DNA of 64,000 nt, from contig JBMOMX010000032.1 in assembly GCA_049323435.1 (NCBI GenBank), positions 18,555 through 82,554 of the forward strand, read 5' to 3'. The notes under the pieces were generated by a model. The model was not told where the DNA came from. It did not search any database and saw only the letters and a list, made by a program, of their open reading frames with translations. The position numbers and the translations under genes are program-made. Positions 1-33,983 of the stretch are shown one piece after another (the stretch's first letter is position 1; each line of letters starts with the position of its first letter). The stretch comes from Pseudomonadota bacterium (GTDB taxonomy: Bacteria; Pseudomonadota; Alphaproteobacteria; UBA11222).

Positions 1-52
1 TGTTTCGGGCAAACTGATTCCGATAAGAAATCACCATCGGAAAGGAAGCCAC

Positions 53-622
53 ATGAAACTGTCAAAACCCCGCATTCAGCCGCTGCCGGAAAGCCAGTGG
101 AGCGCAGAACAGAGGCCCGCATTTGAAGCCGCCAAAAAGGGCAAGAGCGCGATCAGCGACGCGGTCGTGTTCAATGTCATGGGCACGCTTGGCAACCATC
201 CTGAAGCCGCCAAAAAATTCAATGTCTGGGCGTTTCATGTCATGGGCGACAGTTCCACGCTGGGGGCGCGCGAACGCGAAATCCTGATCCTGCGCATCGG
301 CTGGCTGTGCCAGGCGGAATATGAATGGGCGCAGCACGCCGTCATCGGCCGTAAATGCGGCCTGTCGGATGCGGAAATCGCGCGCATCAAGGAAGGGCCG
401 GACGCCAAGGGCTGGAGCGAACTGGACAGCCTGCTGCTGCGCGCAACAGATGAGTTGCACAAGGACGCCTGCATCTCGGACGCGACCTGGAACGGCCTTG
501 CCAAACATTACAACACCCAGCAACTGATGGATGTGGTGTTCGCCGTGGGCCAGTATAATCTGGTGTCGATGGCGCTGAATTCGTTCGGCGTGCAGCTGGA
601 TGAGGGGCTGAAAGGTTTCTGA
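53..622 (+). CDS. carboxymuconolactone decarboxylase (CMD)/AhpD-like family protein, paralog 1
   Basis: 189-aa ORF. Most positions are shared with the two downstream paralogs (MKLSKPRI..PE..W, EREILILRIGWLC.EYEW.QH.V.GR, SDATWNGLAK, QYNLVSMALNSFGVQLDEG.KGF). Size and the conserved Cys/His block fit the CMD/AhpD-like fold; family name is from memory. Confidence 0.65.
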   Translation: MKLSKPRIQPLPESQWSAEQRPAFEAAKKGKSAISDAVVFNVMGTLGNHPEAAKKFNVWAFHVMGDSSTLGAREREILILRIGWLCQAEYEWAQHAVIGRKCGLSDAEIARIKEGPDAKGWSELDSLLLRATDELHKDACISDATWNGLAKHYNTQQLMDVVFAVGQYNLVSMALNSFGVQLDEGLKGF

Positions 623-709
623 TCGCGGCGCAAAAAAGTGCTTTTACAAGTGCTGTGAAACAGGGCAGACTGATCTCTTATAATAAATAATAAGGGGGAG
701 GACGCCGTC

Positions 710-1282
710 ATGAAACTATCGAAGCCGCGCATCAAGCCGTTGGATGAAAGCGAGTGGACGCCGGAACAGGCCAAGACTTTAGGACGTCTCAAGGGCGGCA
801 GCACCGAGTTCGGCGCGAAAATGCATGTCTATAATGTGCTGGGCACGCTGTCGCGCCATCCGGAGGCCAACAAGAAATTCGGCGTCTGGGCCAATCATAT
901 CATGGGGCCGACAAATACGCTGCCGCCGCGCGAGCGTGAAATTCTGATCCTGCGCATCGGCTGGCTGTGCGAGGCGGAGTATGAATGGGGCCAGCATGTG
1001 GTGTTTGGCCGCGCCGTTGGCCTGACGGATGAGGAAATCGCCCGCATCAAGCTTGGCCCCGACGCGCCCGGCTGGAGCGAACATGACGCGCTGCTGCTGC
1101 GCGCCACAGACGAGCTGCGCAAGGACGCCTGTATATCGGATGCGACCTGGAACGGGCTGGCCAAACGCTATAACACGCATCAGCTGATGGATGTGGTGTT
1201 CACCGTGGGCCAGTATAATCTGGTGTCGATGGCGCTGAATTCATTCGGTGTGCAACTGGATGAGGGCGTGAAAGGCTTTTAG
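710..1282 (+). CDS. CMD/AhpD-like family protein, paralog 2
   Basis: 190-aa ORF with a GGGGAGG RBS upstream; collinear and nearly identical in the conserved blocks to the 53..622 product. Confidence 0.65.
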   Translation: MKLSKPRIKPLDESEWTPEQAKTLGRLKGGSTEFGAKMHVYNVLGTLSRHPEANKKFGVWANHIMGPTNTLPPREREILILRIGWLCEAEYEWGQHVVFGRAVGLTDEEIARIKLGPDAPGWSEHDALLLRATDELRKDACISDATWNGLAKRYNTHQLMDVVFTVGQYNLVSMALNSFGVQLDEGVKGF

Positions 1283-1358
1283 TCAGGCCGCCATGCGTCA
1301 TCTCATTCTGCGAAAGGCAGAGGGAAAAAAATAAAAATAAATTGCAGGGAGAAAAACC

Positions 1359-2054
1359 ATGTTGCATCTGTTTTTCACGCGCCTTAGCGCGCTGGCCATA
1401 GCGGGCTTGCTGCTGCTGGGCAGCCCGGCCCCCGCGCAAAGCGCGGACACGGCCGCATCGCAGCACAGCCAGCCGGTGAAAATCCGCCTCTCCGCGCCGC
1501 GCATTCCCCCATTGGCGGAAAGCAAATGGACGGAGGAACAGGCCAAGGTGCTGGGCCCGCTCAAGCAGGGCGCCCCGATGTTTGGCACAGTGTTGAAGGC
1601 GCATAATGTGCTGGCCACACTGGCGCAGCATGAAGAAGCGCGCAAAAAATTTGATGTCTGGGCCAATCATGTAATGGGCGCGACCAACACACTGCCGCCG
1701 CGCGAGCGCGAAATTCTGATCCTGCGCATTGGCTGGCTCTGCCAGTCTGAATATGAATGGGGTCAGCATGTGGTCATTGGCCGGGCCGTTGGCCTGACGG
1801 ATGAGGAAATCGCGCGCATCAAGCTGGGGGCCGAAGCAAAGGGCTGGAGTGCACATGACGCGCTGCTGATCCGCGCCGCCGATGAACTGGACAAGGACGC
1901 GTTTGTATCCGACGCCACCTGGAACGGGCTAGCCAAAACCTATAATACGCAACAGATGATGGATGTGGTGTTCACCGTGGGCCAGTATAATCTGGTGTCG
2001 ATGGCGCTGAATTCATTCGGCGTTCAGCTGGACGAAGGTGTGAAGGGATTCTAG
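1359..2054 (+). CDS. CMD/AhpD-like family protein, paralog 3, with N-terminal signal peptide (predicted periplasmic)
   Basis: 231 aa; N-terminal MLHLFFTRLSALAIAGLLLLGSPAPAQSA is a typical Sec signal (hydrophobic core plus AxA). The remainder is collinear with paralogs 1 and 2 starting at LSAPRIPPLAESKW. Confidence 0.65.
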   Translation: MLHLFFTRLSALAIAGLLLLGSPAPAQSADTAASQHSQPVKIRLSAPRIPPLAESKWTEEQAKVLGPLKQGAPMFGTVLKAHNVLATLAQHEEARKKFDVWANHVMGATNTLPPREREILILRIGWLCQSEYEWGQHVVIGRAVGLTDEEIARIKLGAEAKGWSAHDALLIRAADELDKDAFVSDATWNGLAKTYNTQQMMDVVFTVGQYNLVSMALNSFGVQLDEGVKGF

Positions 2055-2056
2055 CC

Positions 2057-2851
2057 ATGCGTCTGCAAGGCAAGAAGGCCATCGTCATTGGCGCCGGGCA
2101 AACGCCGGGCGAAACCATCGGTAATGGCCGCGCCACCGCCATCCTGTTCGCACGCGAAGGGGCCGAGGTGATGTGTGTCGATAAACGCCTGCAATCGGCG
2201 CAGGATACGGTGGATATGATTATAAATGAAGGCGGCAAGGCCTTTGCCTATGAGGCCGACATCACCAGCGAGCCGGCCAATGTGGCGCTGGTGCAGGCGG
2301 CGCGCGCCAAAATGGGCCGCATCGACATTCTGCATAATAATGTCGGCATCGGCGCGGGCGATGCGCCGCCGCATAAATTATCCGAAGATGTTTATGACCG
2401 GATCATGCTGGTCAATTTAAAGGCCATGTGGCTGACCTGCAAACATGTGATCCCGGTAATGCGGGAACAGAAATCGGGATCGATCATCAATATTTCCTCG
2501 GCTGCGGCGGTGTCATCTGGCGGCATCACGGCCTATGAAATTTCCAAGGCGGGGGTGAACAAGCTGACCCAATCCATCGCCATGACCAACGCCAAATATG
2601 GCGTGCGTTGCAATGTCATCATGCCCGGCCTGATGGATACGCCGATGGCGATCGAAGGCAATGTGGCGGCGCGCGGCATTTCACGCGAAGAGGTGCGCGC
2701 CATGCGCGACCGTATCGTGCCCTTGCGCGGCAAGATGGGAACCGGATGGGATGTGGCCTATGGCGCACTCTATCTGGCGTCGGACGAGGCCAATTTCGTC
2801 ACCGGCGTGGCGCTGCCGATAGATGGCGGCCATGCGGCGAAGGTGGGATAA
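2057..2851 (+). CDS. SDR family oxidoreductase (FabG-like classical SDR)
   Basis: 264 aa; Rossmann motif AIVIGAGQTPGETIG near the N-terminus, NNVG, a catalytic S..Y...K arrangement (YEISKAG), and a C-terminal PIDGGHAAKVG typical of SDRs. Confidence 0.8.
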   Translation: MRLQGKKAIVIGAGQTPGETIGNGRATAILFAREGAEVMCVDKRLQSAQDTVDMIINEGGKAFAYEADITSEPANVALVQAARAKMGRIDILHNNVGIGAGDAPPHKLSEDVYDRIMLVNLKAMWLTCKHVIPVMREQKSGSIINISSAAAVSSGGITAYEISKAGVNKLTQSIAMTNAKYGVRCNVIMPGLMDTPMAIEGNVAARGISREEVRAMRDRIVPLRGKMGTGWDVAYGALYLASDEANFVTGVALPIDGGHAAKVG

Positions 2852-2865
2852 TGCATTGGGAACGT

Positions 2866-2998
2866 CATACGACCCCTCTAATTCGTCATCGCGAGCCGCG
2901 AAGCGGCGTGGCGATCCAGAAGTCAAAAACTCAAGCTTTTCCTTGTGGTTTCTGGATTGCTTCGCCCCCAAAAGAACTGGGGGCTCGCAATGACGGAG
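2866..2998. repeat. MITE/REP-like imperfect palindromic element with termini cgtcat(c/t)gcgagc
   Basis: Left arm cgtcatcgcgagccgcgaagcggcgtggcgatccagaa and right arm ttctggattgcttcgcccccaaaagaactgggggctcgcaatgacgg are imperfect reverse complements. It sits in the 326-bp gap between two SDR genes. The six-frame ORFs across it (2608..3006, 2681..2971) are repeat-encoded artefacts. Confidence 0.55.
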
Positions 2999-3177
2999 AA
3001 AGGTGATTTTTCTTTTTCTTTGGAATGGTGTGATCGGGTTTTTTCAATTTTGACGCATACGGATTCTTGCGGGCCTTCATTTTAGACAAATTGTACTGTT
3101 CTTTCATGGCCGACCACCTAGGTAGCACGCTATTCTTTATAGCAAAAACTGGATAACACATAACAGGGAGAAGTGGC

Positions 3178-4035
3178 ATGAAAGACGTAAAGGGCAAGGT
3201 GGCGTTCATCACGGGTGCGGCCAGCGGCATGGGGCTGGGCATGGCGCGGGCCTTCGGCGCGGCGGGCATGAAGGTGATGCTCAGCGATATTGAGGACAAG
3301 GCGTTACAGGAACAGGTTAATGATCTGAAAGCCAAAGGTTATGACGTGGCCGGCGTCCAGGTGGATGTCACCAAGGAAGAAGCGCTGCATAATGCCGCCA
3401 AAAAAACCATCGAGACTTTCGGCAAGGTGCATGTGCTGTGCAATAATGCGGGCGTAGGCGTAGGCGGCAAAAGCGAGACCTGCGACATGCGCAACTGGCG
3501 CTGGTGCGTGGATGTCAATATGTGGGGTGTCGTCTATGGCTTGCAGGCGTTCGTGCCGCTGATCAAATCACATGGCGAAGAGGGCCATGTGGTCAGCACC
3601 GCTTCGATGGCCGGGATGTACGGGGTGCGCAATCTTGGCCCCTATAATGCGGCCAAGTTCGCCGTGGTCGGCATTATGGAAACCATGATGGCGGAAAACA
3701 AGAACACCAATATGGGCGTCTCTGTGTTGTGCCCCGGTGCGGTCGCCACCAATATCGGCAATTCCACCCGCAACCGGCAGCAGGAATATGGCGGCGCTGC
3801 GGCCCCCAGCACCATGGACATCACCAATGAGGCATTGGCGCAAGGCCTGCATCCCGATGTGGTCGGCAAACAGGTGCTGGAGGCGATCCTGAAAAACCAG
3901 CCCTATATTTTCACCGATCCCAATATGCGCAAAATGATTGAATCGCGCTTTCGCAAGATCCTGTCCGGCTATGACTGGGCCGATAGTTGCGATGCGCTGG
4001 CGGGCGTCAAGCAGGGCAGTTTGCAGCGGTCTTAA
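3178..4035 (+). CDS. SDR family oxidoreductase, LigD/LigL-like subfamily, tandem paralog 1 of 4
   Basis: 285 aa; MKDVKGKVAFITGAASGMGLG, NNAG, GPYNAAKFAV (Y-x3-K), and a C-terminal extension (PYIFTDP...GYDWA) shared by all four paralogs. CAGGGAG RBS upstream. Confidence 0.85.
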   Translation: MKDVKGKVAFITGAASGMGLGMARAFGAAGMKVMLSDIEDKALQEQVNDLKAKGYDVAGVQVDVTKEEALHNAAKKTIETFGKVHVLCNNAGVGVGGKSETCDMRNWRWCVDVNMWGVVYGLQAFVPLIKSHGEEGHVVSTASMAGMYGVRNLGPYNAAKFAVVGIMETMMAENKNTNMGVSVLCPGAVATNIGNSTRNRQQEYGGAAAPSTMDITNEALAQGLHPDVVGKQVLEAILKNQPYIFTDPNMRKMIESRFRKILSGYDWADSCDALAGVKQGSLQRS

Positions 4036-4079
4036 CATAAGCTCCGTCAACGGAGCAATCAGCGGGAGAAAGACAAAAA

Positions 4080-4952
4080 ATGAAGGACGTAAAAGGTAAA
4101 GTGGCGTTCGTCACGGGCGCCGCCAGCGGCATGGGGCTTGGCATGGCGCGCGCCTTTGCCGAGGCGGGCATGAAAGTGATGCTGGCCGATATTGAGGCGG
4201 GGCCGTTGCAGCGCGAAACCGGCGCGCTGAAGGCCAAAGGCTATGATGTGGATTGCGTGCAGCTGGATGTCACTAAAATGGCGGATGTTCATGCGGCTGC
4301 GAAAAAAACCGTGGACCGCTTCGGCAAGGTGCATGTGCTCTGCAATAATGCCGGCATTGGCGTGTTCGGAAAAAGCGAAACCGCCAATATCAAAAACTGG
4401 CAATGGGTGGTGGATGTCAATCTGTGGGGCGTCGTCTACGGGTTGCAGGCCTTTGTGCCGCTGATCCTCTCACATGGCGAAGGCGGGCATATTGTCAGCA
4501 CATCCTCCATGGCGGGCATGGTGGGCTTGAGCGGCGCGGGGCCCTACAATGCCACCAAATTCGCGGTAGTCGGCATTATGGAAACCATGATGGCGGAAAA
4601 CCGCAAGAGCAATCTGGGCATCTCTGTGCTGTGCCCGGGCGCGGTGGCGACCAATATTTCCACCTCCACCCGCAACCGGCAGGATGAATATGGCGGTGCC
4701 GCGCCGCCTAGCTCCAAGGAACGCATTGCCGATGTGCTGGCGCAGGGCCTGCATCCCGATGTGGTGGGCAAACAGGTGCTGGAGGCGATTATCGACAACC
4801 AGCCCTATATTTTCACCGATCCCGCCATGCGCAAAATGATTGAATCGCGTCATAAACGCCTGATGGCGGGCTATGACTGGGCCGACAGATGCAAGGCGCT
4901 GTCCGGCCAGAAACAGGCAGGCGGTATCCCCGGCGGCATCTTGAAGGAATAG
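4080..4952 (+). CDS. SDR family oxidoreductase, LigD/LigL-like, tandem paralog 2
   Basis: 290 aa; collinear with 3178..4035 and most residues identical. Confidence 0.85.
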   Translation: MKDVKGKVAFVTGAASGMGLGMARAFAEAGMKVMLADIEAGPLQRETGALKAKGYDVDCVQLDVTKMADVHAAAKKTVDRFGKVHVLCNNAGIGVFGKSETANIKNWQWVVDVNLWGVVYGLQAFVPLILSHGEGGHIVSTSSMAGMVGLSGAGPYNATKFAVVGIMETMMAENRKSNLGISVLCPGAVATNISTSTRNRQDEYGGAAPPSSKERIADVLAQGLHPDVVGKQVLEAIIDNQPYIFTDPAMRKMIESRHKRLMAGYDWADRCKALSGQKQAGGIPGGILKE

Positions 4953-5077
4953 CGGCGCGCTTGACCTGCTGTCAGGATTAGGCAAAGCTGCGGCAACAAT
5001 AATTGCGGGGCGTGAGCAAAAGCCCCGCTTCACATCAGCACAGGGAGGCGTCTGTAACAACAGGCGGCGCAATCAGC

Positions 5078-5950
5078 ATGAAAGACGTAAAGGGAAAAAC
5101 AGCCTTCATCACTGGCGGCGCCAGCGGTATGGGGCTTGGCATGGCGCGCGCCTTTGCCGAGGCGGGCATGAAAGTCATGGTCGCCGATATTGAAGCCGAA
5201 GCGGCCAAACGCGCGGCGGCTGAATTGACCGGCAAGGGCCATGAAGCCGCCTGGGTGCAGGTGGATGTCACCAGTCTGGACGCCATGAAGGCGGCCGCGC
5301 AGAAAACTGTGGATACTTTCGGCAATGTGCATGTGCTCTGCAACAATGCCGGCATCGGCGTGTTCGGGCACAGCGAAACCTGTGACATGCGTAACTGGCA
5401 CTGGGTGGTGGATGTCAATCTTTGGGGCGTGGTGCATGGGCTACAGGCCTTTGTGCCGCTGATGCTCGCGCATGGCGAACCCTCCCATGTCTCCAGTACG
5501 GCATCAATGGCCGGCATGGCGGGACTGCGCGGCGCGGGGCCATACAATGCCACCAAATTCGCCGTGGTGGGCATCATGGAAACCTTCGCGGCCGAACATC
5601 GCAAGGATAATATCAGCGCCTCGGTGCTGTGCCCGGGTCTGGTCGCCACCAATATCGCCAGCTCCACCCGCAACCGGCAGGACAAATATGGCGGCGCGGC
5701 AAAAGCCAGCGACAAGGGCATTTCCGCTGCCGAGCTGGCCAAGGGGTTGAACCCCGACGCGGTCGGGCGCGAGGTGCTGGAGGCCATTCTGGAAGATCAG
5801 TTCTATATTTTCACCGATCCCAGCCTGCGGCACATTGTCGAAACCCGCAGCAAGCGTATCCTTCAGGGCTATGACTGGGCGGCAAACTGTAAATCGCTGA
5901 AAGGCGAAAAGCAGGCCGATGGGTTGCCCGGCGGCCTGTTGACGAAATAA
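5078..5950 (+). CDS. SDR family oxidoreductase, LigD/LigL-like, tandem paralog 3
   Basis: The track ORF 5003..5950 has an N-terminal extension. I place the start at the ATG at 5078 because MKDVKGKTAFITGG aligns with the starts of the other paralogs and an RBS-like cagggagg lies upstream. Confidence 0.8.
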   Translation: MKDVKGKTAFITGGASGMGLGMARAFAEAGMKVMVADIEAEAAKRAAAELTGKGHEAAWVQVDVTSLDAMKAAAQKTVDTFGNVHVLCNNAGIGVFGHSETCDMRNWHWVVDVNLWGVVHGLQAFVPLMLAHGEPSHVSSTASMAGMAGLRGAGPYNATKFAVVGIMETFAAEHRKDNISASVLCPGLVATNIASSTRNRQDKYGGAAKASDKGISAAELAKGLNPDAVGREVLEAILEDQFYIFTDPSLRHIVETRSKRILQGYDWAANCKSLKGEKQADGLPGGLLTK

Positions 5951-6006
5951 GCAATAATCACAATCCAGCAAGGGAGGCGTCTGCTTTGGCGGGCGGTAAA
6001 AACAGT

Positions 6007-6864
6007 ATGAAAGACGTAAAAGGCAAAGTGGCGTTTATTACCGGGGCGGCCAGCGGCATGGGCCTGGGCATGGCCCGGTCCTTCGCTGCGGCAGGCATGA
6101 AAGTGATGATCGGCGATATTGAACTGGCCCCCGCCCAGCGCGCCGTGGACGAGTTGAAAGCCAAGGGGCTGGAGGCCGCCTGTGTGCAGGTCGATGTCAC
6201 CAGTCTGGAATCGGTGCAGAACGCCGCCAAAAAAACCGTGGACACGTTCGGCAAGGTGCATGTGATCAGCAATAATGCCGGTATCGCGGTCGGCGGATAC
6301 AGTGAAACATGCAGTATCCGCAACTGGAACTGGGTGGTGGATGTCAATTTGTGGGGCGTTGTGTACGGCTTGCAGGCTTTTGTGCCGCTGATCCTGTCAC
6401 ATGGCGAAGGCGGGCATGTGATCAGCACCGCCTCGATGGCGGGCATGGTCGGGTTGCGCGGCGCGGGCCCCTATAACGCCACCAAATTTGCGGTTGTCGG
6501 CATCATGGAAACTTTCGCAGCCGACCATCGCAAGGATAATATCGGCGCATCCGTGCTGTGCCCCGGCGTGGTGGCCACCAATATCGGCAATTCAGGCCGC
6601 AACCGGCCCGATCAATATGGCGGCGCGGTTGCGCCCAACCCGCGCGACCGGACGGCGGAAATGCTGGCGCAGGGCCTTAATCCCGATATTGTCGGCGATC
6701 TGGTGCTGGAAGCCATGCAGGCCGATCAATTATATATCTTCACCGATCCAGGCCTGAAACATCTGATCGAAACCCGCTGCAAGCGTATCACCGACGCCTA
6801 TGACTGGGCCGCCAACAGCAAATCACTGAAAGGCGTGAAACAGTCAGGCCTGCTGCCGGGATAG
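6007..6864 (+). CDS. SDR family oxidoreductase, LigD/LigL-like, tandem paralog 4
   Basis: Track ORF 5986..6864; start placed at the ATG at 6007 (MKDVKGKVAFITGAASGMGLG). The upstream leader agggaggcgtctg is shared with paralog 3. Confidence 0.8.
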   Translation: MKDVKGKVAFITGAASGMGLGMARSFAAAGMKVMIGDIELAPAQRAVDELKAKGLEAACVQVDVTSLESVQNAAKKTVDTFGKVHVISNNAGIAVGGYSETCSIRNWNWVVDVNLWGVVYGLQAFVPLILSHGEGGHVISTASMAGMVGLRGAGPYNATKFAVVGIMETFAADHRKDNIGASVLCPGVVATNIGNSGRNRPDQYGGAVAPNPRDRTAEMLAQGLNPDIVGDLVLEAMQADQLYIFTDPGLKHLIETRCKRITDAYDWAANSKSLKGVKQSGLLPG

Positions 6865-6924
6865 GGTGTATCGGCGCCGGATTTTTTCTTCTGAGCGCCG
6901 TCTGCCTTTGCTCTGCGAGCTAAG

Positions 6925-7022
6925 GGCTGACCCCCACCCCGGCCCTCCCCCTTTCAGGGGGAGGGAGTCCTTGCGTCTGGCGTCCCCTCCCCTTGAAAAG
7001 GGGAGGGACAGGGAGGGGATCA
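6925..7022. repeat. REP-like nested-hairpin element, family A (ccctcccc...ggggaggg)
   Basis: gacccccaccccggccctccccctttcagggggagggag ... tcccctccccttgaaaaggggagggacagggaggggatc, with two short perfect hairpins inside a larger imperfect palindrome. A second copy lies at 18713..18848. Confidence 0.7.
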
Positions 7023-7112
7023 ACGGGTTAACGTAAAATCATCACGCTATAGTTAGAAAAAATCCGTCTAAAGAAATTCCGTCCAGGGATCATTACGTAA
7101 CAGGAGAAGAGC

Positions 7113-8003
7113 ATGAAAGTCGGCTTTATCGGCATCGGCAATATGGGCGGCCCGATGTGCCGCAATATTATCAAGGGCGGCCATGATGTGACCGTGTTCG
7201 ATCTGAACCCGGCGGCGGTCAAAACATGCACCGATCTGGGCGCAAAGGCGGCGGCCTCACCCAAAGAGGTGGCGTCTCTGGTGGATGTGGTGATGACCTC
7301 GCTGCCGATGCCAAAGGATGTGGAGGCGGTGGCGCTCGGGCCAAACGGCATCATCGAGGGCATTCGTCAGGGGACGATATATATTGATCTGTCCACCAAT
7401 TCGCCGACCATGATCCGTAAAATCGCCGCCGCGTTTGCACCAAAGGGCGTGGTCACGCTGGATGCGCCGGTGTCGGGCGGCGCGATCGGCGCGGAAAAAA
7501 AGACCATCGCCATTATGGTGGGCGGCGACAAGGCGGCCTATGACCGCTGCATGCCCGTCTTTGAAAGTTTCGGGCAGAATATTTCGTTCCTGGGCGCGCT
7601 CGGCAGCGGCGCCATCGCCAAGATAGTCAATAATATGCTGGCTTTCAGCAATATGGCGTCGGCCGCCGAAGGGCTGATGCTGGGCGCTGCGGCGGGGATT
7701 GATCCCGAAGCCCTGAATGAGGTTATCCGCAACAGTTCCGGCAACAGCATGGCCTATCGCGGCGTCGCGCACAAAACGCTGAACGGCGACTGGTCGGCGA
7801 CCTTCACCATTGATCTGGCCTATAAGGATCTGCATCTGGCGCTGGAGCTGGGCGATGAGCTGGGCATCCCGCTGCCGCAGGGCGCGCAGACGCATAATCT
7901 GATGCGCATGGCGCGCGGCATGGGCTTTGGAGGTGATGACGCCACCGCGATCATGCGTGTCTATGAAAAAACACTGGGACGGGAAATACGCAAAAAAAAA
8001 TAA
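7113..8003 (+). CDS. NAD(P)-dependent oxidoreductase, 3-hydroxyisobutyrate dehydrogenase (HIBADH)/2-hydroxy-3-oxopropionate reductase family
   Basis: 296 aa; N-terminal MKVGFIGIGNMGGPM dinucleotide-binding motif, and the length and architecture of the 6PGDH-NAD-binding beta-hydroxyacid dehydrogenase family. Confidence 0.85.
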   Translation: MKVGFIGIGNMGGPMCRNIIKGGHDVTVFDLNPAAVKTCTDLGAKAAASPKEVASLVDVVMTSLPMPKDVEAVALGPNGIIEGIRQGTIYIDLSTNSPTMIRKIAAAFAPKGVVTLDAPVSGGAIGAEKKTIAIMVGGDKAAYDRCMPVFESFGQNISFLGALGSGAIAKIVNNMLAFSNMASAAEGLMLGAAAGIDPEALNEVIRNSSGNSMAYRGVAHKTLNGDWSATFTIDLAYKDLHLALELGDELGIPLPQGAQTHNLMRMARGMGFGGDDATAIMRVYEKTLGREIRKKK

Positions 8004-8018
8004 TCGCGGGGCACACAG

Positions 8019-9353
8019 GTGAACACTGATAATGGGCCGGAGAAAACCGGCCTGATCCCTGCGGATTTGCCGGTGGTGTATCGCACCGGCTATGTCCGGT
8101 ATGTCGTCGGCATACTGACCGTCGTATATGTTTTCAATTTCATGGACAGGCAGATCCTGTCGATCCTGATGCAGCCGATCAAGCAGGAAATGCAGCTTAG
8201 CGACACCGAGCTGGGCTTTCTTGGCGGGGTCGCCTTTGCCATATTTTACGCGACCCTGGGCGTGCCGATTGCACGGCTGGCGGATCAATATTCGCGGGTT
8301 AATCTGATCACCATCTGTCTGGGCCTGTGGAGCTGTATGACCGCGCTGTCGGGCCTGGCGGCGAATTTCATGCAATTGCTGGCGGCGCGCATCGGGGTGG
8401 GCATTGGCGAGGCGGGCGGCGGCCCATCATCGCATTCGCTGATTTCGGATTATGTGCCGGCCCAAAACCGCTCCACGGCGCTGGGCGTGTTTGCGCTGGG
8501 CGTGCCGATCGGGCTGATGGTGGGTTTTCTGGCGGGCGGCTGGCTCGAAGAAAATTATGGCTGGCGGGTGGCGTTTATGGCGGCGGGCATTCCGGGTCTG
8601 ATTCTCGCCGTCATTCTGCGGCTGACGGTGCGTGAACCCAAACGCGGCCATTCGTCGGGCGAGACGGACATCATCCATGCAGATCAACCCTCGATGAAGC
8701 AGGTGGCCAACCATATGCGCGCCATCCGCACCTTCCGGCTGCTGGCCATTGCCGCCGCGATGCAGGCCTTTGCGGGCTATGGCCTGATCCAGTGGCTGCC
8801 CAGCTTCCTCACCCGCAACCATCAGATGAGCAGCACGGATATCGGCTTCTGGCTGGCGATGACGATTGGCGCGGGCGGCGCGATCGGCACGATGGGCGGC
8901 GGTTATTTCGCCGATCTGCTGTCGCGTAAAAATCTGGCCTGGCAATTATGGCTGCCGGGCATAGGCAGCCTGTTGGGCGCCTTTATCTCGTTCGGCATAA
9001 TGCTTTCACCCGGCATACCGGTGCTGCTGTTTTTTGTGTTTCTGCATTCGGTGGCGGTCAATGCCTATCTCGGCCCGTCTTTTGCGGTGACGCAAACTTT
9101 GTCGCCTGTGCGGATGCGCGCGCTGGCCAGCGCGCTGCTGCTGTTCGCGATCAATATTGTTGGCCTCGGGCTTGGGCCGCAAATGGTGGGCGCGCTAAGC
9201 GATCTGCTGCGCCCGGCTTTAGGCGATGAATCGCTGCGTTACGCCATACTGGCGGGGTGCATGACCTATTTTGTGGCGGCGCTGTTTTTCGCTTTGGCGG
9301 GGCGTGCGGCGCGCGTGGATTTTGCAACTGCGGCGCGGCTGGCGGGGGATTAA
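8019..9353 (+). CDS. MFS transporter, tandem paralog 1 of 3
   Basis: 444 aa and highly hydrophobic; MFS signature around PIARLADQYSR and GVGIGEAGGGP. Collinear with the next two ORFs. Confidence 0.85.
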   Translation: MNTDNGPEKTGLIPADLPVVYRTGYVRYVVGILTVVYVFNFMDRQILSILMQPIKQEMQLSDTELGFLGGVAFAIFYATLGVPIARLADQYSRVNLITICLGLWSCMTALSGLAANFMQLLAARIGVGIGEAGGGPSSHSLISDYVPAQNRSTALGVFALGVPIGLMVGFLAGGWLEENYGWRVAFMAAGIPGLILAVILRLTVREPKRGHSSGETDIIHADQPSMKQVANHMRAIRTFRLLAIAAAMQAFAGYGLIQWLPSFLTRNHQMSSTDIGFWLAMTIGAGGAIGTMGGGYFADLLSRKNLAWQLWLPGIGSLLGAFISFGIMLSPGIPVLLFFVFLHSVAVNAYLGPSFAVTQTLSPVRMRALASALLLFAINIVGLGLGPQMVGALSDLLRPALGDESLRYAILAGCMTYFVAALFFALAGRAARVDFATAARLAGD

Positions 9354-9368
9354 CGGGGGATTGGATCA

Positions 9369-10670
9369 TTGATCAGCAAGGCGCAGACTGAATCCGGCAA
9401 TCCGGTGGTATATAGCCGGGGCTATGTCAATTATGTCATTGGCGCGCTGGCGATGGTCTATCTCGTCAATCTGACCGACCGTCAAATCCTTGCCATTCTG
9501 ATGCAGCCGATCAAGGAGGAAATGCAGCTTTCCGACACCGAGCTGGGTTTTCTGGGCGGCATCGCCTTCGCAATTTTTTATTCGACCCTCGGTCTGCCGA
9601 TTGCGCGGCTGGCGGATAAATATTCCCGCGTCAAAATTCTGTCTGTCTGTCTGGCCTTATGGAGCGTCATGACGGCGCTGTGCGGTCTGTCGTCGAATTT
9701 CTGGCAGTTGCTGGCGGCCCGCATCGGCGTGGGCGTCGGCGAGGCCGGCGGCAGCCCGCCATCGCATTCGCTGATCGCCGATTATGTTCCGGTGGAAAAG
9801 CGCGCCACCGCCATCGGTCTGTTCGCCGTCGGCGTGCCGCTTGGCCTTTTGTCGGGCTATCTGCTGGGCGGCTGGCTGGAGGAATTATATGGATGGCGGG
9901 CGGCGTTCATGGCCATCGGGCTGCCGGGCCTGATTGTGTCCCTGATTGTGTGGCTGACCGTGGAAGAGCCGCCGCGCGGAAATTCGCAGGGCGGCGTGAA
10001 GGTGCAGGCGGAAACACCGCGCATCATGGCGGTGGTGCGGCATATGTCGGCCGTGCCATCCTTTCTGCATCTATCGCTGGCGACCGCCATGCAGGGCTTC
10101 GCCACTTATGGCATCTATCAGTGGATACCCAGTTTCATGTCGCGCAGCTATCAGATGCAAAGCGGCGAAATAGGCAGCTGGCTGGCGCTGGTGATTGGCG
10201 TGAGCGGCTTTTTCGGGACTATCCTGGGCGGCTATTTCGCGGATGCCCTGTCGCGCCGCGACATGCGCTGGCAGATGTGGCTGCCGGGCCTGTGCATGTT
10301 GCTGGCGCTGCCCGCATGCCTTGGCATGTATCTTTCTTTCGGGCTGTATCTGTCCATGTTCTTTCTCGCGCTGGTGGTTTTTCTCGTGAATGTATGGCTT
10401 GGACCCGGACTGGCCATCACCCAGACGCTGGCGCCGGTGCGGATGCGCGCCATGGCCAGCGCACTGCTGCTGTTTGTGCTGAATATTATCGGCCTTGGCA
10501 TGGGGCCGCAGGCGGTCGGCATCATGAGTGATCTTCTCGCGCCCGCCTATGGCCAGGAATCGCTGCGTTATGCCCTGCTGATTTCCAGTTCTTTTTACCT
10601 TTGGTCGGCGTATCATTTCTGGAAAGCAGCTGTAACCCTGAAACCGGACCTGAAACAGGCGATAGAATAA
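9369..10670 (+). CDS. MFS transporter, tandem paralog 2
   Basis: 433 aa; the same conserved blocks (DRQILAILMQPIKEEMQLSDTELGFLGG, ARLADKYSR, GVGEAGGSPPSHSLIADYVP). The apparent start codon is TTG at 9369. Confidence 0.8.
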   Translation: MISKAQTESGNPVVYSRGYVNYVIGALAMVYLVNLTDRQILAILMQPIKEEMQLSDTELGFLGGIAFAIFYSTLGLPIARLADKYSRVKILSVCLALWSVMTALCGLSSNFWQLLAARIGVGVGEAGGSPPSHSLIADYVPVEKRATAIGLFAVGVPLGLLSGYLLGGWLEELYGWRAAFMAIGLPGLIVSLIVWLTVEEPPRGNSQGGVKVQAETPRIMAVVRHMSAVPSFLHLSLATAMQGFATYGIYQWIPSFMSRSYQMQSGEIGSWLALVIGVSGFFGTILGGYFADALSRRDMRWQMWLPGLCMLLALPACLGMYLSFGLYLSMFFLALVVFLVNVWLGPGLAITQTLAPVRMRAMASALLLFVLNIIGLGMGPQAVGIMSDLLAPAYGQESLRYALLISSSFYLWSAYHFWKAAVTLKPDLKQAIE

Positions 10671-10692
10671 ATATAATAACAAGGGGGAAAAC

Positions 10693-12021
10693 ATGACCAG
10701 CCTTGACGAGGACGGCGCCGCAACGGCCGCGCTGGTGCCCGCACATGAACCGGCGGCGCATTTCAGCAAACCCTATATCAATTATGTCATCGGCATGCTG
10801 ACGGTGGTTTATGCGGTCAATCTTATCGACCGGCAAATTCTGTCGATCCTGATGCAGCCGATCAAGCAGGAGATGCAGCTTTCCGACACGGCGCTGGGAT
10901 TTTTATCCGGCATCGCCTTTGCGATGTTTTACGCCACGCTTGGCATACCGATTGCCCGGCTGGCGGATAAAAGTTCGCGGGTGAATATTATTTCCATCAG
11001 CCTGGCGCTATGGAGCTTTATGACGGCGCTGTGCGGCGCAGCACAGAATTTCTGGCAATTGCTGGCGGCGCGCATTCTGGTCGGCGTGGGCGAGGCGGGC
11101 AGCGGGCCTTCCTCACATTCGCTGATCGCCGATTATGTGCCGCTGGAGACACGCAGCTCCGCGCTGGCGATTTATTCGCTGGGCATTCCCATCGGCATTA
11201 TGATTGGTTTTTCGGTTGGCGGCTGGCTGGAGCAGTTATATGGCTGGCGTATTGCGTTCATGGCCGTGGGTGTACCCGGTCTTATACTGGCGGTCATTGT
11301 CCGTCTGACATTGCGCGAGCCGCCGCGCGGCCATGCAGATGGCGTGGCGCGGGCGGATAAAGCCGAACAGCCGCCGCTGCGCGAAGTCGCCAGCACCATG
11401 TGGAAACGCAAATCCTTCCGTCATCTGGTGACGGCGATCGGCATTCAGGCCATTTCGGGCTATGGCGTTCTGATCTGGGTGCCAAGCTTTCTGCATCGCA
11501 GCTATCATATGACCAGCGCCGAGGTTGGCACGGCCTTGGCGCTTATTCTTGGCATTGGCGGCATCATCGGCACGGCGGCGGGCGGCTATCTGGCCGACCA
11601 TCTGGCAAAGCGCACGGTGCGCTGGCAATTATGGATACCGGCGCTGGGGGGCCTGGTGGCGGTGCCGTTTAGTTTCGGGACTTATCTTTCCGGCACAGCC
11701 TTTGCCACACTGGCCTGGTTTGCGGTGCCGATCATTTTCGCCAATCTGTATCATGGCCCGGTATTCGCCATGGCGCAGGCGCTGGCGCCGCTTAGAATGC
11801 GCGCCATGGCCGCGGCGATCCTGTTATTCATGAGCAGCTTTGTCGGCATGGGCATCGGACCGCAACTTGCGGGCATTATCAGCGATTTGCTCGCACCCGC
11901 CTATGGCGCGGATTCGCTGCGCTATGCGCTGCTGTGTATTTCCATGGCGCATATATGGTCGGCGGCGCATTTCTGGCTGGCGTCAAAAACCTTGCAGGAG
12001 GACTTGGCGATTGCGCAATAA
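10693..12021 (+). CDS. MFS transporter, tandem paralog 3
   Basis: 442 aa; same blocks, with a GGGG RBS upstream. Confidence 0.85.
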   Translation: MTSLDEDGAATAALVPAHEPAAHFSKPYINYVIGMLTVVYAVNLIDRQILSILMQPIKQEMQLSDTALGFLSGIAFAMFYATLGIPIARLADKSSRVNIISISLALWSFMTALCGAAQNFWQLLAARILVGVGEAGSGPSSHSLIADYVPLETRSSALAIYSLGIPIGIMIGFSVGGWLEQLYGWRIAFMAVGVPGLILAVIVRLTLREPPRGHADGVARADKAEQPPLREVASTMWKRKSFRHLVTAIGIQAISGYGVLIWVPSFLHRSYHMTSAEVGTALALILGIGGIIGTAAGGYLADHLAKRTVRWQLWIPALGGLVAVPFSFGTYLSGTAFATLAWFAVPIIFANLYHGPVFAMAQALAPLRMRAMAAAILLFMSSFVGMGIGPQLAGIISDLLAPAYGADSLRYALLCISMAHIWSAAHFWLASKTLQEDLAIAQ

Positions 12022-12063
12022 TAGGGGCATAATAGCAGCCCATAACCGCAGGGAGAAGAAACC

Positions 12064-12354
12064 ATGAGCCTCGGAGTCATCGCAAAGATCAAGATACAGC
12101 CCGGCAAGAATGCCGAGTTTGAACAGATATTTTCTGAACTGGCGGCAGCCGTGCGCAAGAACGAGCCGGGCAATAATTTTTATGCCCTGCACAAATCCAA
12201 AACCGATCCGCAACTTTATGTGGTGCTGGAAAATTACAAGGATGCGGCGGCCTTTGCCGCACACCGCGAATATCCGCATTTCAAGGAAGGCGGCAAGAAA
12301 ATGGGCGCCTGCATGGCCGGCGCGCCCGAAGTCGAATTGCTCGACGGCGTTTAA
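12064..12354 (+). CDS. antibiotic biosynthesis monooxygenase (ABM) domain protein, putative quinol monooxygenase, paralog 1
   Basis: 96 aa; ABM-like ferredoxin-fold size, with conserved NEPG...YALHKSKTDPQ.YVVLENY...AH..SPHF. Confidence 0.65.
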   Translation: MSLGVIAKIKIQPGKNAEFEQIFSELAAAVRKNEPGNNFYALHKSKTDPQLYVVLENYKDAAAFAAHREYPHFKEGGKKMGACMAGAPEVELLDGV

Positions 12355-12384
12355 ACCTCATCTAACACCAGCAAGGAAGCAAAA

Positions 12385-12675
12385 ATGACGATAGGAATCG
12401 TAGCGAAACTGAAAGTGGCGCCAGGCAAGAATGCCGAGTTTGAGGAGATTTTCTCCGTACTGGCGCGCGCCACCCGCAAGGATGAGCCGGGCAATAATTT
12501 TTATGCCCTGCACAAATCCAAAACCGATCCGCAAACCTATGTGGTTCTGGAAAATTACAGGGACCAGGCAGCGGTCGATGCGCATATGAGCTCGCCGCAT
12601 TTTCAGGCCGGTTTCAAACAAATGGGCGCATGTCTTGCGGGCGCGCCGGAAATCGAATTTCTCGACGGCGTCTGA
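12385..12675 (+). CDS. ABM domain protein, paralog 2
   Basis: 96 aa; collinear with and near-identical to 12064..12354 in its conserved blocks. Confidence 0.65.
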   Translation: MTIGIVAKLKVAPGKNAEFEEIFSVLARATRKDEPGNNFYALHKSKTDPQTYVVLENYRDQAAVDAHMSSPHFQAGFKQMGACLAGAPEIEFLDGV

Positions 12676-12685
12676 TCAGCCTGTT

Positions 12686-12740
12686 GACCGGTGACAGTAT
12701 AGTTTTAATTTCCCGTAATTGATAAATACCGTCACCGGTC
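12686..12740. terminator. 15-bp inverted repeat (1 mismatch) with a ~25-nt AT-rich spacer between convergent genes; candidate bidirectional terminator or protein-binding site
   Basis: gaccggtgacagtat ... ataccgtcaccggtc, located between the ABM gene (+) and the ubiH-like gene (-). Confidence 0.35.
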
Positions 12741-12771
12741 AGTCTCAAAAATCCTGCCTGTATAATGTTTT

Positions 12772-14010
12772 TTACAATGGCAGGCCGGTCAGCAGGCGCG
12801 GCAGGCTGCCCACCTCGCCCGCTGCGTGGCGCATGGCCAGACGGCGCAGCGGGCCGATCTGTCCAGTCAGGCCTATGCCAATATCCCGGGCCAGCCGCAC
12901 CCAGGGCGTATCATTGGAAAACAGCCGGTTGAGTATATCCGTCACCGCAGCCAGGCTGACATTGTCAAAGCGCCGCCACGCCTGATAGCGCGCCAGCACG
13001 CTAGCGGCGCCGATATCCAGCCCCAGCCGGTGCGCATCCACCAGCACCTCTGCCAATGCAGCCACGTCACGCAATCCCAGATTCAGCCCCTGTCCGGCGA
13101 TCGGATGGATCGTATGGGCTGCATCTCCCGCCAGCACCAGACGCTGCGCAACATAGTCACGGGCATGATGGAAGGATAAAGGATAGACCCAGCGCGGCCC
13201 TTCAACATGAATATCACCCCACTGGCTGCCGAAGCGGGCGCGCAATTCGGTCTCAAAATCCGCCTGCGCCAGCGCCATCAGGGCCTTGGCGCGCGCGCCG
13301 GGTTCGGTCCAGACCAGCGAGGATCGCTGTCCTGTCATGGGCAGAATTGCAAACGGCCCGCCGGGCAGAAAATATTCATGCGCCAGACCGCCATGCGGAC
13401 GGGCATGGTGCACCGTGGCCACGATGCCCGACTGGCCATAATCCCATGCGACGGACCTTATCCCAGCCCCCGCACGCAACAGGGAATCCCGGCCATCTGC
13501 GGCAATACACAAGCGTCCATAAAGCAGGCTGCCATCGGACAAACGCACGGCAATCCCGCCCGCATCCGGCACAGCCGATACGGCCCTGCTTTCGCCGCGC
13601 ACGCGAATGGCGGGCACATCGCTTATGCCCGCATGCAGGACGCTTCGAAAAAACCGGTTTTCCAGAATATAGCCGAGCGGCCCGCCGGAAATATCCCCTA
13701 CCCCGTCAAGATGATCGAAATGCAGGCTGAGCGGCGAGGCGCCCCGGCCCAGACGGCCATCACTTACCATGATATCCAGAATGGGTTGCGCCCCGCTGAC
13801 CAGTTGCGGCCAAATCCCCAGCGCGCTCATCAGCCGTACCGAGGCGCGGCCAAGCGCCGAAACCCGCCCGTCAAAAGCCGTGTCCAGCACGGTTTGCACA
13901 GGGGTTGCATCCAGCACCAGCACTGACAGTCCCGCCCGGCCCGCCGCAAGGGCAAAGCTCAGGCCAACCATGCCGCCGCCAACCAGAATGATGTCTGCAT
14001 CAAATTGCAT
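12772..14010 (-). CDS. ubiH: FAD-dependent ubiquinone biosynthesis hydroxylase, UbiH/UbiF/VisC/COQ6 family
   Basis: 412 aa; N-terminal DIILVGGGMVGLSFALA (GxGxxG FAD fold) and the full-length architecture of the aromatic-ring hydroxylase family. Confidence 0.8.
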   Translation of the reverse strand: MQFDADIILVGGGMVGLSFALAAGRAGLSVLVLDATPVQTVLDTAFDGRVSALGRASVRLMSALGIWPQLVSGAQPILDIMVSDGRLGRGASPLSLHFDHLDGVGDISGGPLGYILENRFFRSVLHAGISDVPAIRVRGESRAVSAVPDAGGIAVRLSDGSLLYGRLCIAADGRDSLLRAGAGIRSVAWDYGQSGIVATVHHARPHGGLAHEYFLPGGPFAILPMTGQRSSLVWTEPGARAKALMALAQADFETELRARFGSQWGDIHVEGPRWVYPLSFHHARDYVAQRLVLAGDAAHTIHPIAGQGLNLGLRDVAALAEVLVDAHRLGLDIGAASVLARYQAWRRFDNVSLAAVTDILNRLFSNDTPWVRLARDIGIGLTGQIGPLRRLAMRHAAGEVGSLPRLLTGLPL

Positions 14011-18645: not shown

Positions 18646-18712
18646 CCTGGCTTGTGGCGCATATTTACTAAATCAATTTGTAACCCGGCTGGATCAGTCC
18701 CTTTGACATCTC

Positions 18713-18848
18713 GCTGACCCCCACCCCGGCCCTCCCCCTTTCAAGGGGAGGGAGTCTCCCAACGCAGCTTTTATATATTTATAAAAACCATTGTCAGCCC
18801 CAGAATTCCCTCCCCTTGCAAAGGGGAGGGCCAGGGAGGGGATCAGGT
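18713..18848. repeat. REP-like nested-hairpin element, family A, second copy with an AT-rich internal insert
   Basis: ctgacccccaccccggccctccccctttcaaggggagggagtc ... tccctccccttgcaaaggggagggccagggaggggatca; same arms as 6925..7022. Confidence 0.7.
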
Positions 18849-30433: not shown

Positions 30434-30461
30434 GATTTATTCCGCACCCTTGCCGCAGGGG

Positions 30462-31313: not shown

Positions 31314-31977
31314 GGGCTACCTCCGTGATTATCAGCACCTTGCCTGCCGAATGAGTTCGGCTTGGGTGCTGTATCACCGTCATTTTTCTATATTTTGCGG
31401 CCAATGTCAATTCATCATCTACATCTTGTCCTTTTAAAAGTAAATAAATCGTATCCGGCCCGGCAATCGGCGCAGTCAATTCCAGGATCCGATGCAGCGG
31501 GGCCAGCGCACGCGCCGTGATCAGCCGCGCCGGACCGCCCAATTGCGGCGGTTGTAGCTGCTCGATACGCTGCGCATGGACCTGTGCGGAAATTCCGGTG
31601 GCGCGAATCACTTCCTGCAAAAAAATTGCCTTGCGCTGATCGCTTTCGACCAGATGCAGGCTGGCGGCATTGCCCGTATCCTCCTGAAGCAGCGCAAGCA
31701 CCAGACCCGGAAATCCGGCGCCACTGCCAATGTCCAGCCAGGGTGCGCGCTGTTCAGGCAGAAGATGTAAAAGCTGGGCGCTGTCACGCAGGTGGCGCTG
31801 CCACAAATCCGGCAGCGTGCTGGCGCTGACCAGATTGATCCTGGGCTGCCATTTTTGCAGCAATGCGACAAAGTGATTTACCCGCGCCAGTGCCGCCGGG
31901 CCAATATTGAATTCCCGTTGAAATTCCACCGGCCCATAAGGGCCGCTGCTGGCATTATCGCAATTGCCGCCGTTCAC
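31306..31977 (-). CDS. rsmG: 16S rRNA (guanine527-N7)-methyltransferase RsmG (GidB)
   Basis: 223 aa; SAM-MTase motif [12 protein letters not shown]. Conserved position between mnmG and parA. Confidence 0.85.
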
Positions 31978-33860: not shown

Positions 33861-33983
33861 AGCGCACTCTATGCTGCTTTGCAGTCTTTGTCAAAAATTC
33901 ACCTAAATTATCAGATCGACCCTATTTTACAGATCTACCGGGATCGTCTCTGGCTATTCCATCTGATCCGAATAGGGTCTAGC

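Follow-up and report, generated by a model that had tools for sequence, protein, structure and literature searches.

Gene-by-gene tandem duplication has expanded a six-gene operon in uncultured marine Alphaproteobacteria

Here we describe a block of 14 genes at one end of a 64,000-nucleotide stretch of DNA (hereafter the window) from an alphaproteobacterium of the GTDB lineage UBA11222 (GenBank assembly GCA_049323435.1, contig JBMOMX010000032.1, positions 18,555 to 82,554). The block comprises 14 intact, consecutive open reading frames (ORFs), all on the plus strand, at window positions 53-12675. It is a lineage-specific expansion of a conserved six-gene operon, and the group that hosts the expansion is uncultured marine Alphaproteobacteria. 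Four of the six operon genes were duplicated in place, one by one, to 3, 4, 3 and 2 copies, and the resulting copies all remain intact, with their catalytic residues preserved and purifying selection acting on them. Most probably, the expansion lets the cell import and oxidise a broader set of related organic acids.

A conserved six-gene operon and its expansion

The 14 genes form four tandem paralog arrays (three CMD, four SDR, three MFS and two ABM genes) and two singletons, namely a classical SDR (SDR1, hereafter SDRa) and a HIBADH-like dehydrogenase. The four arrayed SDR genes, SDR2 to SDR5, are hereafter called SDRb. Pfam assigns the proteins to CMD (three), adh_short (five), NAD_binding_2 plus NAD_binding_11 (one), MFS_1 (three) and ABM (two); domains of regulators, dioxygenases and glutathione transferases (GSTs) were not found in a Pfam scan of the 14 proteins. 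An initial annotation of this DNA had reported the same 14 ORFs, with coordinates that our analysis confirms, had remarked on the same three absences, including that of a ring-cleavage dioxygenase, and had counted five arrays. The families it listed (CMD, a fourfold SDR set, MFS and ABM) are as described, and the arrays number four.

Amino-acid identity within arrays is 67-78% for CMD (73% between CMD1 and CMD2), 66-74% for SDR2 to SDR5, 55-60% for MFS and 72% for ABM, with nucleotide identities of 72-84% between array copies. SDR1 is only 22-26% identical to SDR2 to SDR5. Paralog pairs score BLASTP E values of 1e-54 to 1e-175, far past chance. Because the other ~47 ORFs of the window yielded no paralog pair at E<=1e-10, the paralogy is confined to the block. 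The same locus was found on 23 independent metagenome contigs (ENA, JGI) and is therefore not an assembly artefact.

Relatives were collected by a CMD alignment scan of one genome per GTDB species, which returned 582, and the best 80 loci were compared with the 14 window proteins. These relatives all come from metagenome-assembled genomes (MAGs) or metagenome contigs; none has a cultured host. Two Alphaproteobacteria MAGs (L018, L019) carry the single-copy operon CMD-SDRa-SDRb-HIBADH-MFS-ABM in identical order; on the contig of L019 (also recovered as L092) SDRa and SDRb are separated by a GNAT gene, and downstream of ABM comes an AMP-dependent ligase. In a Pseudomonadales MAG (L021) the order is CoA-transferase III-CMD-SDRa-SDRb-HIBADH, then a luciferase-like monooxygenase and an alpha/beta hydrolase. 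Arrays with varying copy number occur in seven species-level MAGs (L012-L017 and L020; DnaJ 87-90% identical), one of which (L014) is without CMD3, SDR2 and MFS1. That other genomes repeat this gene set in this order bears out the view, already taken in the initial annotation, that the block is one module. The module adjoins dnaJ in some related MAGs and a rhomboid gene in others (L013 and L017-L019 have the latter at the position held elsewhere by dnaJ), and because this upstream neighbour varies, the operon moves as a unit. A CoA-transferase III or AMP-ligase gene adjoins the module in other lineages. More broadly, the block's families are found beside CoA-transferases, luciferase-like monooxygenases, amidohydrolases and a di-haem peroxidase, and these contexts held no ring-cleavage genes. 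A literature search for this gene combination returned nothing directly relevant.

Origin and divergence of the copies

Neighbour-joining trees with 100 bootstraps resolve SDRb into four orthologous groups, each at 96-100% bootstrap (SDR2 100%, SDR4 99%). SDR2 and SDR3 are sisters at 99% and SDR4 and SDR5 at 69%, and the four groups are monophyletic with respect to single-copy outgroups at 68%. Since physically adjacent SDR copies are thus each other's closest relatives, the trees indicate that single genes were duplicated in tandem, one after another, in the ancestor shared by the array-bearing MAGs, in keeping with the in-situ duplication that had been proposed for the paralogs. Whole-operon or pairwise block duplication as the origin of the arrays is rejected, as the groupings SDR2+4 and SDR3+5 both received 0% bootstrap.

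The orthologous groups of CMD, MFS and ABM have 89-100% bootstrap (CMD1 group 99%). MFS3 and ABM1 are nearest to the single-copy forms, and the remaining MFS and ABM copies evolve faster; among the SDRb copies, SDR5 is nearest to the single-copy orthologs (72% identity). SDR5 also has homologs at 80-87% identity in Porticoccaceae MAGs (P0127, P0133, P0149), where they stand in unrelated contexts. The closer match to these gammaproteobacterial homologs than to the alphaproteobacterial single-copy orthologs suggests that the gene may have passed horizontally between marine Alpha- and Gammaproteobacteria.

Every copy tested shows constraint between species. The ratio of nonsynonymous to synonymous divergence (dN/dS) between orthologs is 0.03-0.22: 0.10-0.22 for CMD1, 0.06-0.13 for CMD2, 0.05-0.09 for SDR2, 0.03-0.12 for SDR3, 0.05-0.11 for SDR4, 0.11-0.12 for MFS3, 0.03-0.04 for ABM1 and 0.05-0.16 for ABM2. 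Between paralogs, dN is 0.15-0.39 at dS 0.7-1.05. Set against the low ortholog values, the paralog values mean that protein change was faster after duplication and that constraint came later.

Where the SDRb copies diverged is informative. Residues N114, S143, Y156 and K160 are invariant, as are the cofactor motifs. Positions that are fixed within but differ between orthologous groups cluster at 148-153, 170-176 and 194-220. The first cluster falls between catalytic Ser143 and Tyr156, and the last corresponds to the substrate-binding loop of LigL, residues 191-229 (PMC4858972). Such a pattern is in line with specialisation on related substrates, as the initial annotation had supposed, and it argues against both a recent dosage amplification and pseudo-enzyme subunits.

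The CMD-SDRa pair

The CMD proteins belong to a large, strongly conserved family. We found 7429 homologs at E<=1e-10, many of them 65-72% identical across Alphaproteobacteria, Binatia, Porticoccaceae and others, and a profile search gathered 7310 clusters at 50% identity. The generic Pfam CMD model (PF02627) was the sole model matched, at 28-36 bits; an NCBIfam scan of CMD1 and CMD3, PcaC and AhpD models included, gave no family at E<=1e-5. In the Protein Data Bank (PDB), a sequence search with CMD2 gave no match at E<0.01, and a profile search gave AhpD matches only, which were marginal. Structure was more telling. An AlphaFold (AF2) model of CMD2 (pLDDT 88.9) matched AhpD-like structures 2gmy, 2oyo, 2pfx, 3c1l, 6k40 and 6e8l in Foldseek with template-modelling (TM) scores of 0.67-0.80, probability 1.00 and 14-20% identity, and fitted the putative gamma-CMD structures 2q0t and 2qeu poorly (TM 0.31-0.39).

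AhpD catalysis depends on a Cys-x-x-Cys in a helix hairpin, part of a Glu/Cys/Cys/His proton relay (PMC3141380). In a profile alignment to Atu0492 and Streptococcus pneumoniae AhpD, the CMD proteins have Ala89 and Glu92 at the two cysteine positions of the CxxC and keep the His (H96). Across 34 diverse members R7, N42, R82, Y91, H96, W147 and Y169 are invariant, and E77, E92, W122 and D134 nearly so. The sole family-typical cysteine is C87, which is not invariant in the wider family. The CMD proteins thus combine a predicted AhpD fold with a site that lacks cysteine and is rich in acid-base residues and arginine.

Two known identities were considered for these proteins and set aside. AhpD-type alkylhydroperoxidases share the fold and have the CxxC that CMD proteins lack. 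For PcaC, there is no curated equivalog match and the TM scores to gamma-CMD structures are poor; genes of the beta-ketoadipate pathway were found neither in the block nor among the recurrent neighbours of 80 + 80 related loci. The automatic labels "4-carboxymuconolactone decarboxylase" and "alkylhydroperoxidase" for this family are probably both wrong.

CMD3 has a 41-residue N-terminal extension with the n/h/c layout of a signal peptide (MLHLFFTRLSALAIAGLLLLGSPAPA, followed by QS), read by eye, and is predicted to be exported; the initial annotation had likewise noted a signal peptide in one of the CMDs. The extension is common to the L015/L016 orthologs, P0030 and many other family members. 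Many members of the family carry signal peptides or lipoprotein signals (single-domain lipoprotein forms include P0256 and P0265), and roughly one in three of the top 150 representatives is a ~400-aa tandem fusion of two CMD domains; in P0241, P0242 and P0244 (~410-440 aa) two diverged domains follow an N-terminal signal peptide. Duplication, fusion and export thus appear to recur within the family.

SDRa is 82% identical between alpha- and gammaproteobacterial loci and adjoins CMD in gammaproteobacterial MAGs. A metagenome scan with SDRa gave relatives at 56-65% identity; 58 loci had enough upstream sequence, and in 29 of these a CMD-family gene lies directly 5' on the same strand. At least seven loci have a 4-bp overlap between the CMD and SDRa genes. 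Judged by this gene order, CMD-SDRa is a conserved and widespread two-gene core. The CMD loci that do not carry SDRa have other neighbours: amidohydrolases, CoA-transferase III, other MFS transporters, isochorismatase-like proteins and luciferase-like monooxygenases. Soil loci of the form CCP_MauG-CMD-SDRa (L143, L161, L165 and eight more) are followed in about seven cases by an opposite-strand LysR regulator. The plasmid collection held CMD relatives at 32-45% identity only. Among them, Sphingobium sp. RAC03 plasmid pBSY17_1 (L178, 759026-773562) carries a co-directional MFS (34-36% identical to MFS1-3)-DUF1330-CMD (40%) set with further MFS and SDR genes close by, a suggestive, distant analogue in a cultured sphingomonad.

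SDRb and the remaining proteins

The initial annotation had called the SDRb array LigD-like, which is correct at the subfamily level only. SDR2 and SDR5 match LigO, LigD and LigL over residues 1-265 at E 1e-41 to 1e-45, against a generic SDR background of ~1e-33. The best PDB structures for SDRb are three uncharacterised structural-genomics SDRs, 3ioy, 3tjr and 5ig2, followed by LigO, LigD and LigL; the identity of SDR5 is 42% with 3ioy, 36% with LigO and 33% with LigD. Orthology or closest kinship to the Lig enzymes was therefore not found, since the uncharacterised SDRs outscore them. The best NCBIfam model for SDR2 is PRK06194, at 254 bits against a 308-bit cutoff. An Asp after beta-2, the NAD-type signature (PMC4858972), is present in SDR2 to SDR5 (the Asp37 equivalent, in 'SDIE', 'ADIE' and 'GDIE'), in SDR1 and in the HIBADH-like protein. 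SDRb homologs in Porticoccaceae and other MAGs stand in heterogeneous contexts, beside Ldi, a Rieske oxygenase or an aldehyde dehydrogenase, which give no clue to the substrate; in L096 the neighbours are a Rieske oxygenase and FAA hydrolases.

The HIBADH-like protein matches NAD_binding_2 (E 5e-50) and NAD_binding_11 (E 3e-31). In the PDB it is nearest to 2-(hydroxymethyl)glutarate dehydrogenase (3cky, E 3e-65), and tartronate-semialdehyde reductase is also close. It falls below all NCBIfam equivalog cutoffs among those tested (HIBADH, GarR, LtnD and YihU), with bit scores against cutoffs of 249.6/397, 236.6/340.75, 230.5/291.6 (TIGR01692), 204.3/350 (ThreonDh) and 192.2/348. The MFS transporters best match the anion and aromatic-acid symporter families TIGR00893 (140-143 against 395 bits) and TIGR00895 (118-125 against 418 bits), below both cutoffs; only that of Pfam MFS_1 is reached. 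ABM1 and ABM2 score 77 and 81 bits against PF03992 (gathering cutoff 23.1). The nearest structure to ABM1 is 3bm7 (function unknown; E 5e-22), with a distant likeness to the isomerase LsrG, and no YgiN-type structure matched the ABM proteins at E<1e-3.

Proposed function and alternatives

In the explanation that we consider best overall, and to which we give an even chance, the module imports and NAD-oxidises a family of related anionic compounds of the hydroxy-carboxylate type, which may be isomers or homologues, with its copies specialised on different members. Exported CMD3 would act on the substrate in the periplasm, and the three MFS paralogs would import its variants. The four NAD-type SDRb paralogs would then convert variant-specific secondary alcohols to ketones, which the ABM proteins would isomerise or oxygenate without a cofactor. 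The cytoplasmic CMDs and the tightly linked SDRa may jointly decarboxylate or isomerise a carboxylated intermediate, the CMDs by way of a Cys-free Tyr/Glu/His/Arg site and not as thiol peroxidases. SDRa and the HIBADH-like enzyme would process common downstream intermediates. The expanded genes would thus form a substrate-specific upper funnel and the two single genes a shared lower part: substrate specificity would account for the duplication at the transporter, SDRb, ABM and CMD steps, and a role on shared intermediates for the single copies of SDRa and the HIBADH-like enzyme. Carboxylate substrates are consistent with the CMD arginines R7 and R82 together with Y91, E92 and H96, the likeness of the HIBADH-like protein to 2-(hydroxymethyl)glutarate dehydrogenase and tartronate-semialdehyde reductase, the symporter-like MFS proteins, the NAD-type dehydrogenases and the neighbouring CoA-transferase or AMP-ligase.

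Several points weigh against this proposal. Each chemical step is assigned from superfamily membership, all NCBIfam matches are under their curated cutoffs, and the direction of MFS transport is a prediction. The block encodes no regulator, and no hydrolase, lyase, kinase or CoA enzyme that would complete a pathway. The duplication history draws on neighbour-joining trees only and on NG86 dS values that, near 1, approach saturation, and the deep nodes of the CMD tree are poorly resolved (42-59% bootstrap). SDRa is present at only 11 of the 80 CMD loci, and CMD genes are found in many other settings. Two of those settings hint at a role in redox or stress: thioredoxin and MerR_2 genes adjoin CMD in 9-11 loci of Porticoccaceae, and a gene for a di-haem cytochrome c peroxidase (CCP_MauG) lies directly 5' of CMD-SDRa in 11 soil metagenome loci.

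These neighbours favour a different reading, in which the block defends against redox or electrophile stress: AhpD-fold proteins, quinol-monooxygenase-like ABM proteins and carbonyl-reducing SDRs would detoxify reactive peroxides, quinones or aldehydes, and the MFS transporters would export the products. The nearest folds to the CMD proteins are indeed AhpD and 'antioxidant defence' proteins, the block lies directly 3' of dnaK-dnaJ in this lineage, and an SDR-dehydrogenase-CMD trio of Mycobacterium tuberculosis, Rv0769-Rv0771, responds to aldehyde stress (PMC10470581). We nevertheless consider stress defence unlikely. Ala and Glu stand in for the two CxxC cysteines, and C87 is not invariant in the wider family; an NAD-type Asp, as in these dehydrogenases, typifies catabolic oxidation; the MFS transporters score best against symporter families and not DHA-type efflux pumps; the ABM proteins lack a YgiN-type match at the threshold given above; and the adjacency to dnaJ is not ancestral, a rhomboid gene taking its place in L013 and L017-L019. 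It is quite improbable, too, that the paralogs are subunits of hetero-oligomers or serve gene dosage and leave the substrate range as it was. Adjacent CMDs could act as a unit, given that so many CMD representatives fuse two domains, and heteromeric SDRs exist (BbsCD, PDB 7pcs). Dosage sits badly with paralogs that are 55-78% identical at dS 0.7-1.05, which is not recent amplification. As for hetero-oligomers, every SDRb copy has the full catalytic tetrad, so that none is a pseudo-enzyme subunit, and relatives drop single copies yet keep the array, which is unexpected if the subunits are obligate. MFS transporters, moreover, function as monomers.

The initial annotation had linked the block to aromatic or lignin-derived compounds. 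In such a reading, LigD-like C-alpha dehydrogenases would oxidise stereoisomeric beta-aryl ether dimers, and CMD and ABM proteins would act downstream, as they do in aromatic pathways. The full-length matches of SDR2 and SDR5 to LigO, LigD and LigL stand well over the generic SDR background, the four stereospecific Lig paralogs are a known precedent and are mutually only 37-40% identical (PMC4858972), and one SDRb homolog does lie beside a Rieske oxygenase and FAA hydrolases. Even so, we regard this link as highly improbable and do not retain it: SDR5 shares just 33-36% identity with LigD and LigO, and three other SDRs outscore them; the CMD proteins are not of the PcaC type; and a GST, an etherase and a ring-cleavage gene are absent from the block's 14 genes, as are aromatic ring-cleavage genes from the contexts of its relatives.

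More tentatively, and with the balance somewhat against it, we raise the idea that the CMD proteins constitute a new, Cys-free catalytic class in the AhpD fold, marked by the invariant Arg/Asn/Arg/Tyr/His/Trp/Tyr set, that with a dedicated, often translationally coupled SDR would perform an undescribed two-enzyme conversion of a common environmental metabolite. If this were true, the array in the window would be a natural experiment on which pathway steps set substrate range.

Gene coordinates, intergenic elements and surroundings

The features of the block are collected in Table 1. For SDR4, the start at 5078 is more likely than that at 5003, as gene calls on identical metagenome contigs favour it. 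The stop of CMD3 lies 2 nt 5' of SDR1.

Table 1. Genes and intergenic features of the block, in window coordinates
Feature	Position	Strand	Description
Leader 5' of CMD1	1..52	+	3' half of element TTTGTGC-N14-GGGCAAA(CTGAT), truncated by window start
CMD1	53..622	+	Cytoplasmic AhpD-fold (Pfam CMD) protein, 189 aa, CxxC-less; Pfam CMD E 1.8e-6
CMD2	710..1282	+	Cytoplasmic AhpD-fold protein, 190 aa; Pfam CMD
CMD3	1359..2054	+	AhpD-fold protein with signal-peptide-like N-terminus, 231 aa; Pfam CMD
SDR1 (SDRa)	2057..2851	+	Classical SDR, 264 aa, single copy; Pfam adh_short_C2 E 4.5e-50
brnA antitoxin gene remnant	3030..3125	-	Within the 326-bp SDR1-SDR2 gap (2852-3177)
SDR2 (SDRb copy 1)	3178..4035	+	285 aa; Pfam adh_short
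SDR3 (SDRb copy 2)	4080..4952	+	290 aa; Pfam adh_short
SDR4 (SDRb copy 3)	5078..5950	+	290 aa; open frame reaches upstream to 5003
SDR5 (SDRb copy 4)	5986..6864	+	285-292 aa; conserved MKDVKGK start at 6007
REP-like G+C-rich hairpin pair	6925..7020		Within the 248-bp SDR5-HIBADH gap
HIBADH-like beta-hydroxyacid dehydrogenase	7113..8003	+	296 aa, single copy; NAD_binding_2 + NAD_binding_11
MFS1 transporter	8019..9353	+	444 aa; Pfam MFS_1
MFS2 transporter	9369..10670	+	433 aa; Pfam MFS_1
MFS3 transporter	10693..12021	+	442 aa; Pfam MFS_1
ABM1	12064..12354	+	96 aa; Pfam ABM E 1.2e-21
ABM2	12385..12675	+	96 aa; Pfam ABM E 7e-23

The element cut off by the start of the window (its positions 1-13) is complete in L001 (2874-2901), where it forms an imperfect inverted repeat. 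It lies 50-80 bp 5' of the first CMD gene, also in L014, L015, L020 and L098-L100, whatever the upstream gene, and was not found repeated at the internal gaps of the block. Conserved across these relatives, it is a candidate promoter or operator on which a regulator encoded elsewhere could act. Scans for sigma-70 promoters and terminators inside the block gave nothing decisive, and an Rfam scan of the locus and its flanks gave no riboswitch or known RNA, only two chance-level matches.

At the SDR1-SDR2 junction the window retains ~90 nt of brnA and a palindromic repeat. The remnant is an 82% nucleotide match to the brnT/brnA cassette that L012, L015 and L016 carry intact at this junction; there the pair lies on the opposite strand inside the operon (6278-7180, 12203-12865 and 12123-12799, respectively) and its ORFs match Pfam BrnT_toxin and BrnA_antitoxin. 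The same junction is a gap of ~30 bp in L013, L014 and L020 and holds a GNAT gene in L018/L019; these comparisons mark it as an insertion hot spot. No decayed extra copies and no GNAT remnant were found in the two large gaps of the block. The hairpin element of the SDR5-HIBADH gap is paired (CCCTCCCC-N7-GGGGAGGG, twice; flanks GCTGACCCCCACCCCGG ... CAGGGAGGGGATCA) and recurs at 18712-18845. These are four matches against 0.03 expected, both sites are intergenic, and the element looks like a repetitive extragenic palindromic (REP) or miniature inverted-repeat transposable element (MITE)-type repeat.

The dnaK-dnaJ genes directly upstream of the window start are seen on identical metagenome contigs. 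Downstream of the block are ubiH (minus strand), glnB and amtB. Farther along, the window holds parB-parA-gidB-gidA-mnmE (29546-35364) and hemH-hemE (42482-44541); cumulative GC skew reaches its minimum at ~44-46 kb, where G+C falls to 0.49-0.53. This gene set and skew minimum are typical of the neighbourhood of an alphaproteobacterial oriC, which places the block ~30 kb from the likely replication origin.

Significance and relation to known systems

Tandem paralogs are common, and the components of the block all come from known superfamilies, with no new principle shown so far. What is unusual is that four of six operon genes expanded in register and that the copies persist across species. 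As an example of an operon that broadens its scope through duplication and specialisation, the block is unusually clean, and its division into duplicated and single genes predicts which steps are substrate-specific. A second unusual feature is the CMD-SDRa core itself, widespread yet uncharacterised in both of its proteins and probably misannotated. CMD and SDRa are both found in uncultured lineages that are abundant in the sea and in soil (Binatia, Porticoccaceae, Alphaproteobacteria), and identification of their substrate would annotate thousands of genes.

Among known systems, a gene set that is close by description only is Rv0769-Rv0770-Rv0771 of M. tuberculosis, in which two dehydrogenases and a 'possible 4-CMD' are co-transcribed within the uncharacterised operon Rv0762c-Rv0771 (PMC10470581). 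That trio likewise joins two dehydrogenases to a CMD-family protein, but its operon contains P450s and an aldehyde dehydrogenase and has no MFS or ABM arrays. The beta-hydroxyacid dehydrogenases (3cky, GarR 1vpd, HIBADH and the L-threonate dehydrogenase LtnD) share the two-domain architecture of the HIBADH-like protein, at E 1e-58 to 3e-65, although the latter is under every equivalog cutoff.

PcaC, the gamma-carboxymuconolactone decarboxylase of the protocatechuate branch of the beta-ketoadipate pathway, resembles the CMD proteins in a weak PF02627 score and in that no cofactor or cysteine chemistry is expected of it. It differs in the missing NCBIfam match, in its dissimilar structure and in its neighbours, as pcaB, pcaD, pcaG and pcaH are absent at the block. 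The AhpD-like 'uncharacterised peroxidase-related' proteins (2oyo, 2pfx, 2prr and 3c1l, with 6k40 of Deinococcus radiodurans, 6e8l of S. pneumoniae and Atu0492, 2gmy) share an all-helical fold of ~185 residues and the His of the CxxCxxxH helix. In contrast to them, the block's CMDs have Ala89/Glu92 and another invariant set, and their family includes exported, lipoprotein and tandem-fused forms.

LigD, LigL, LigN and LigO of Sphingobium sp. SYK-6 (PDB 4y98, 4yae and 4ya6) differ from SDRb in sequence (33-36% identity to SDR5) and in setting: the block's SDRb genes are in tandem and 66-74% identical to one another, and no GST etherase or lyase partners accompany them in the block. The Lig enzymes nevertheless share with SDRb the subfamily, the C-terminal extension and the NAD-type Asp, and they too are several paralogs per genome, diverged mainly in the substrate loop, that divide stereoisomers among them.

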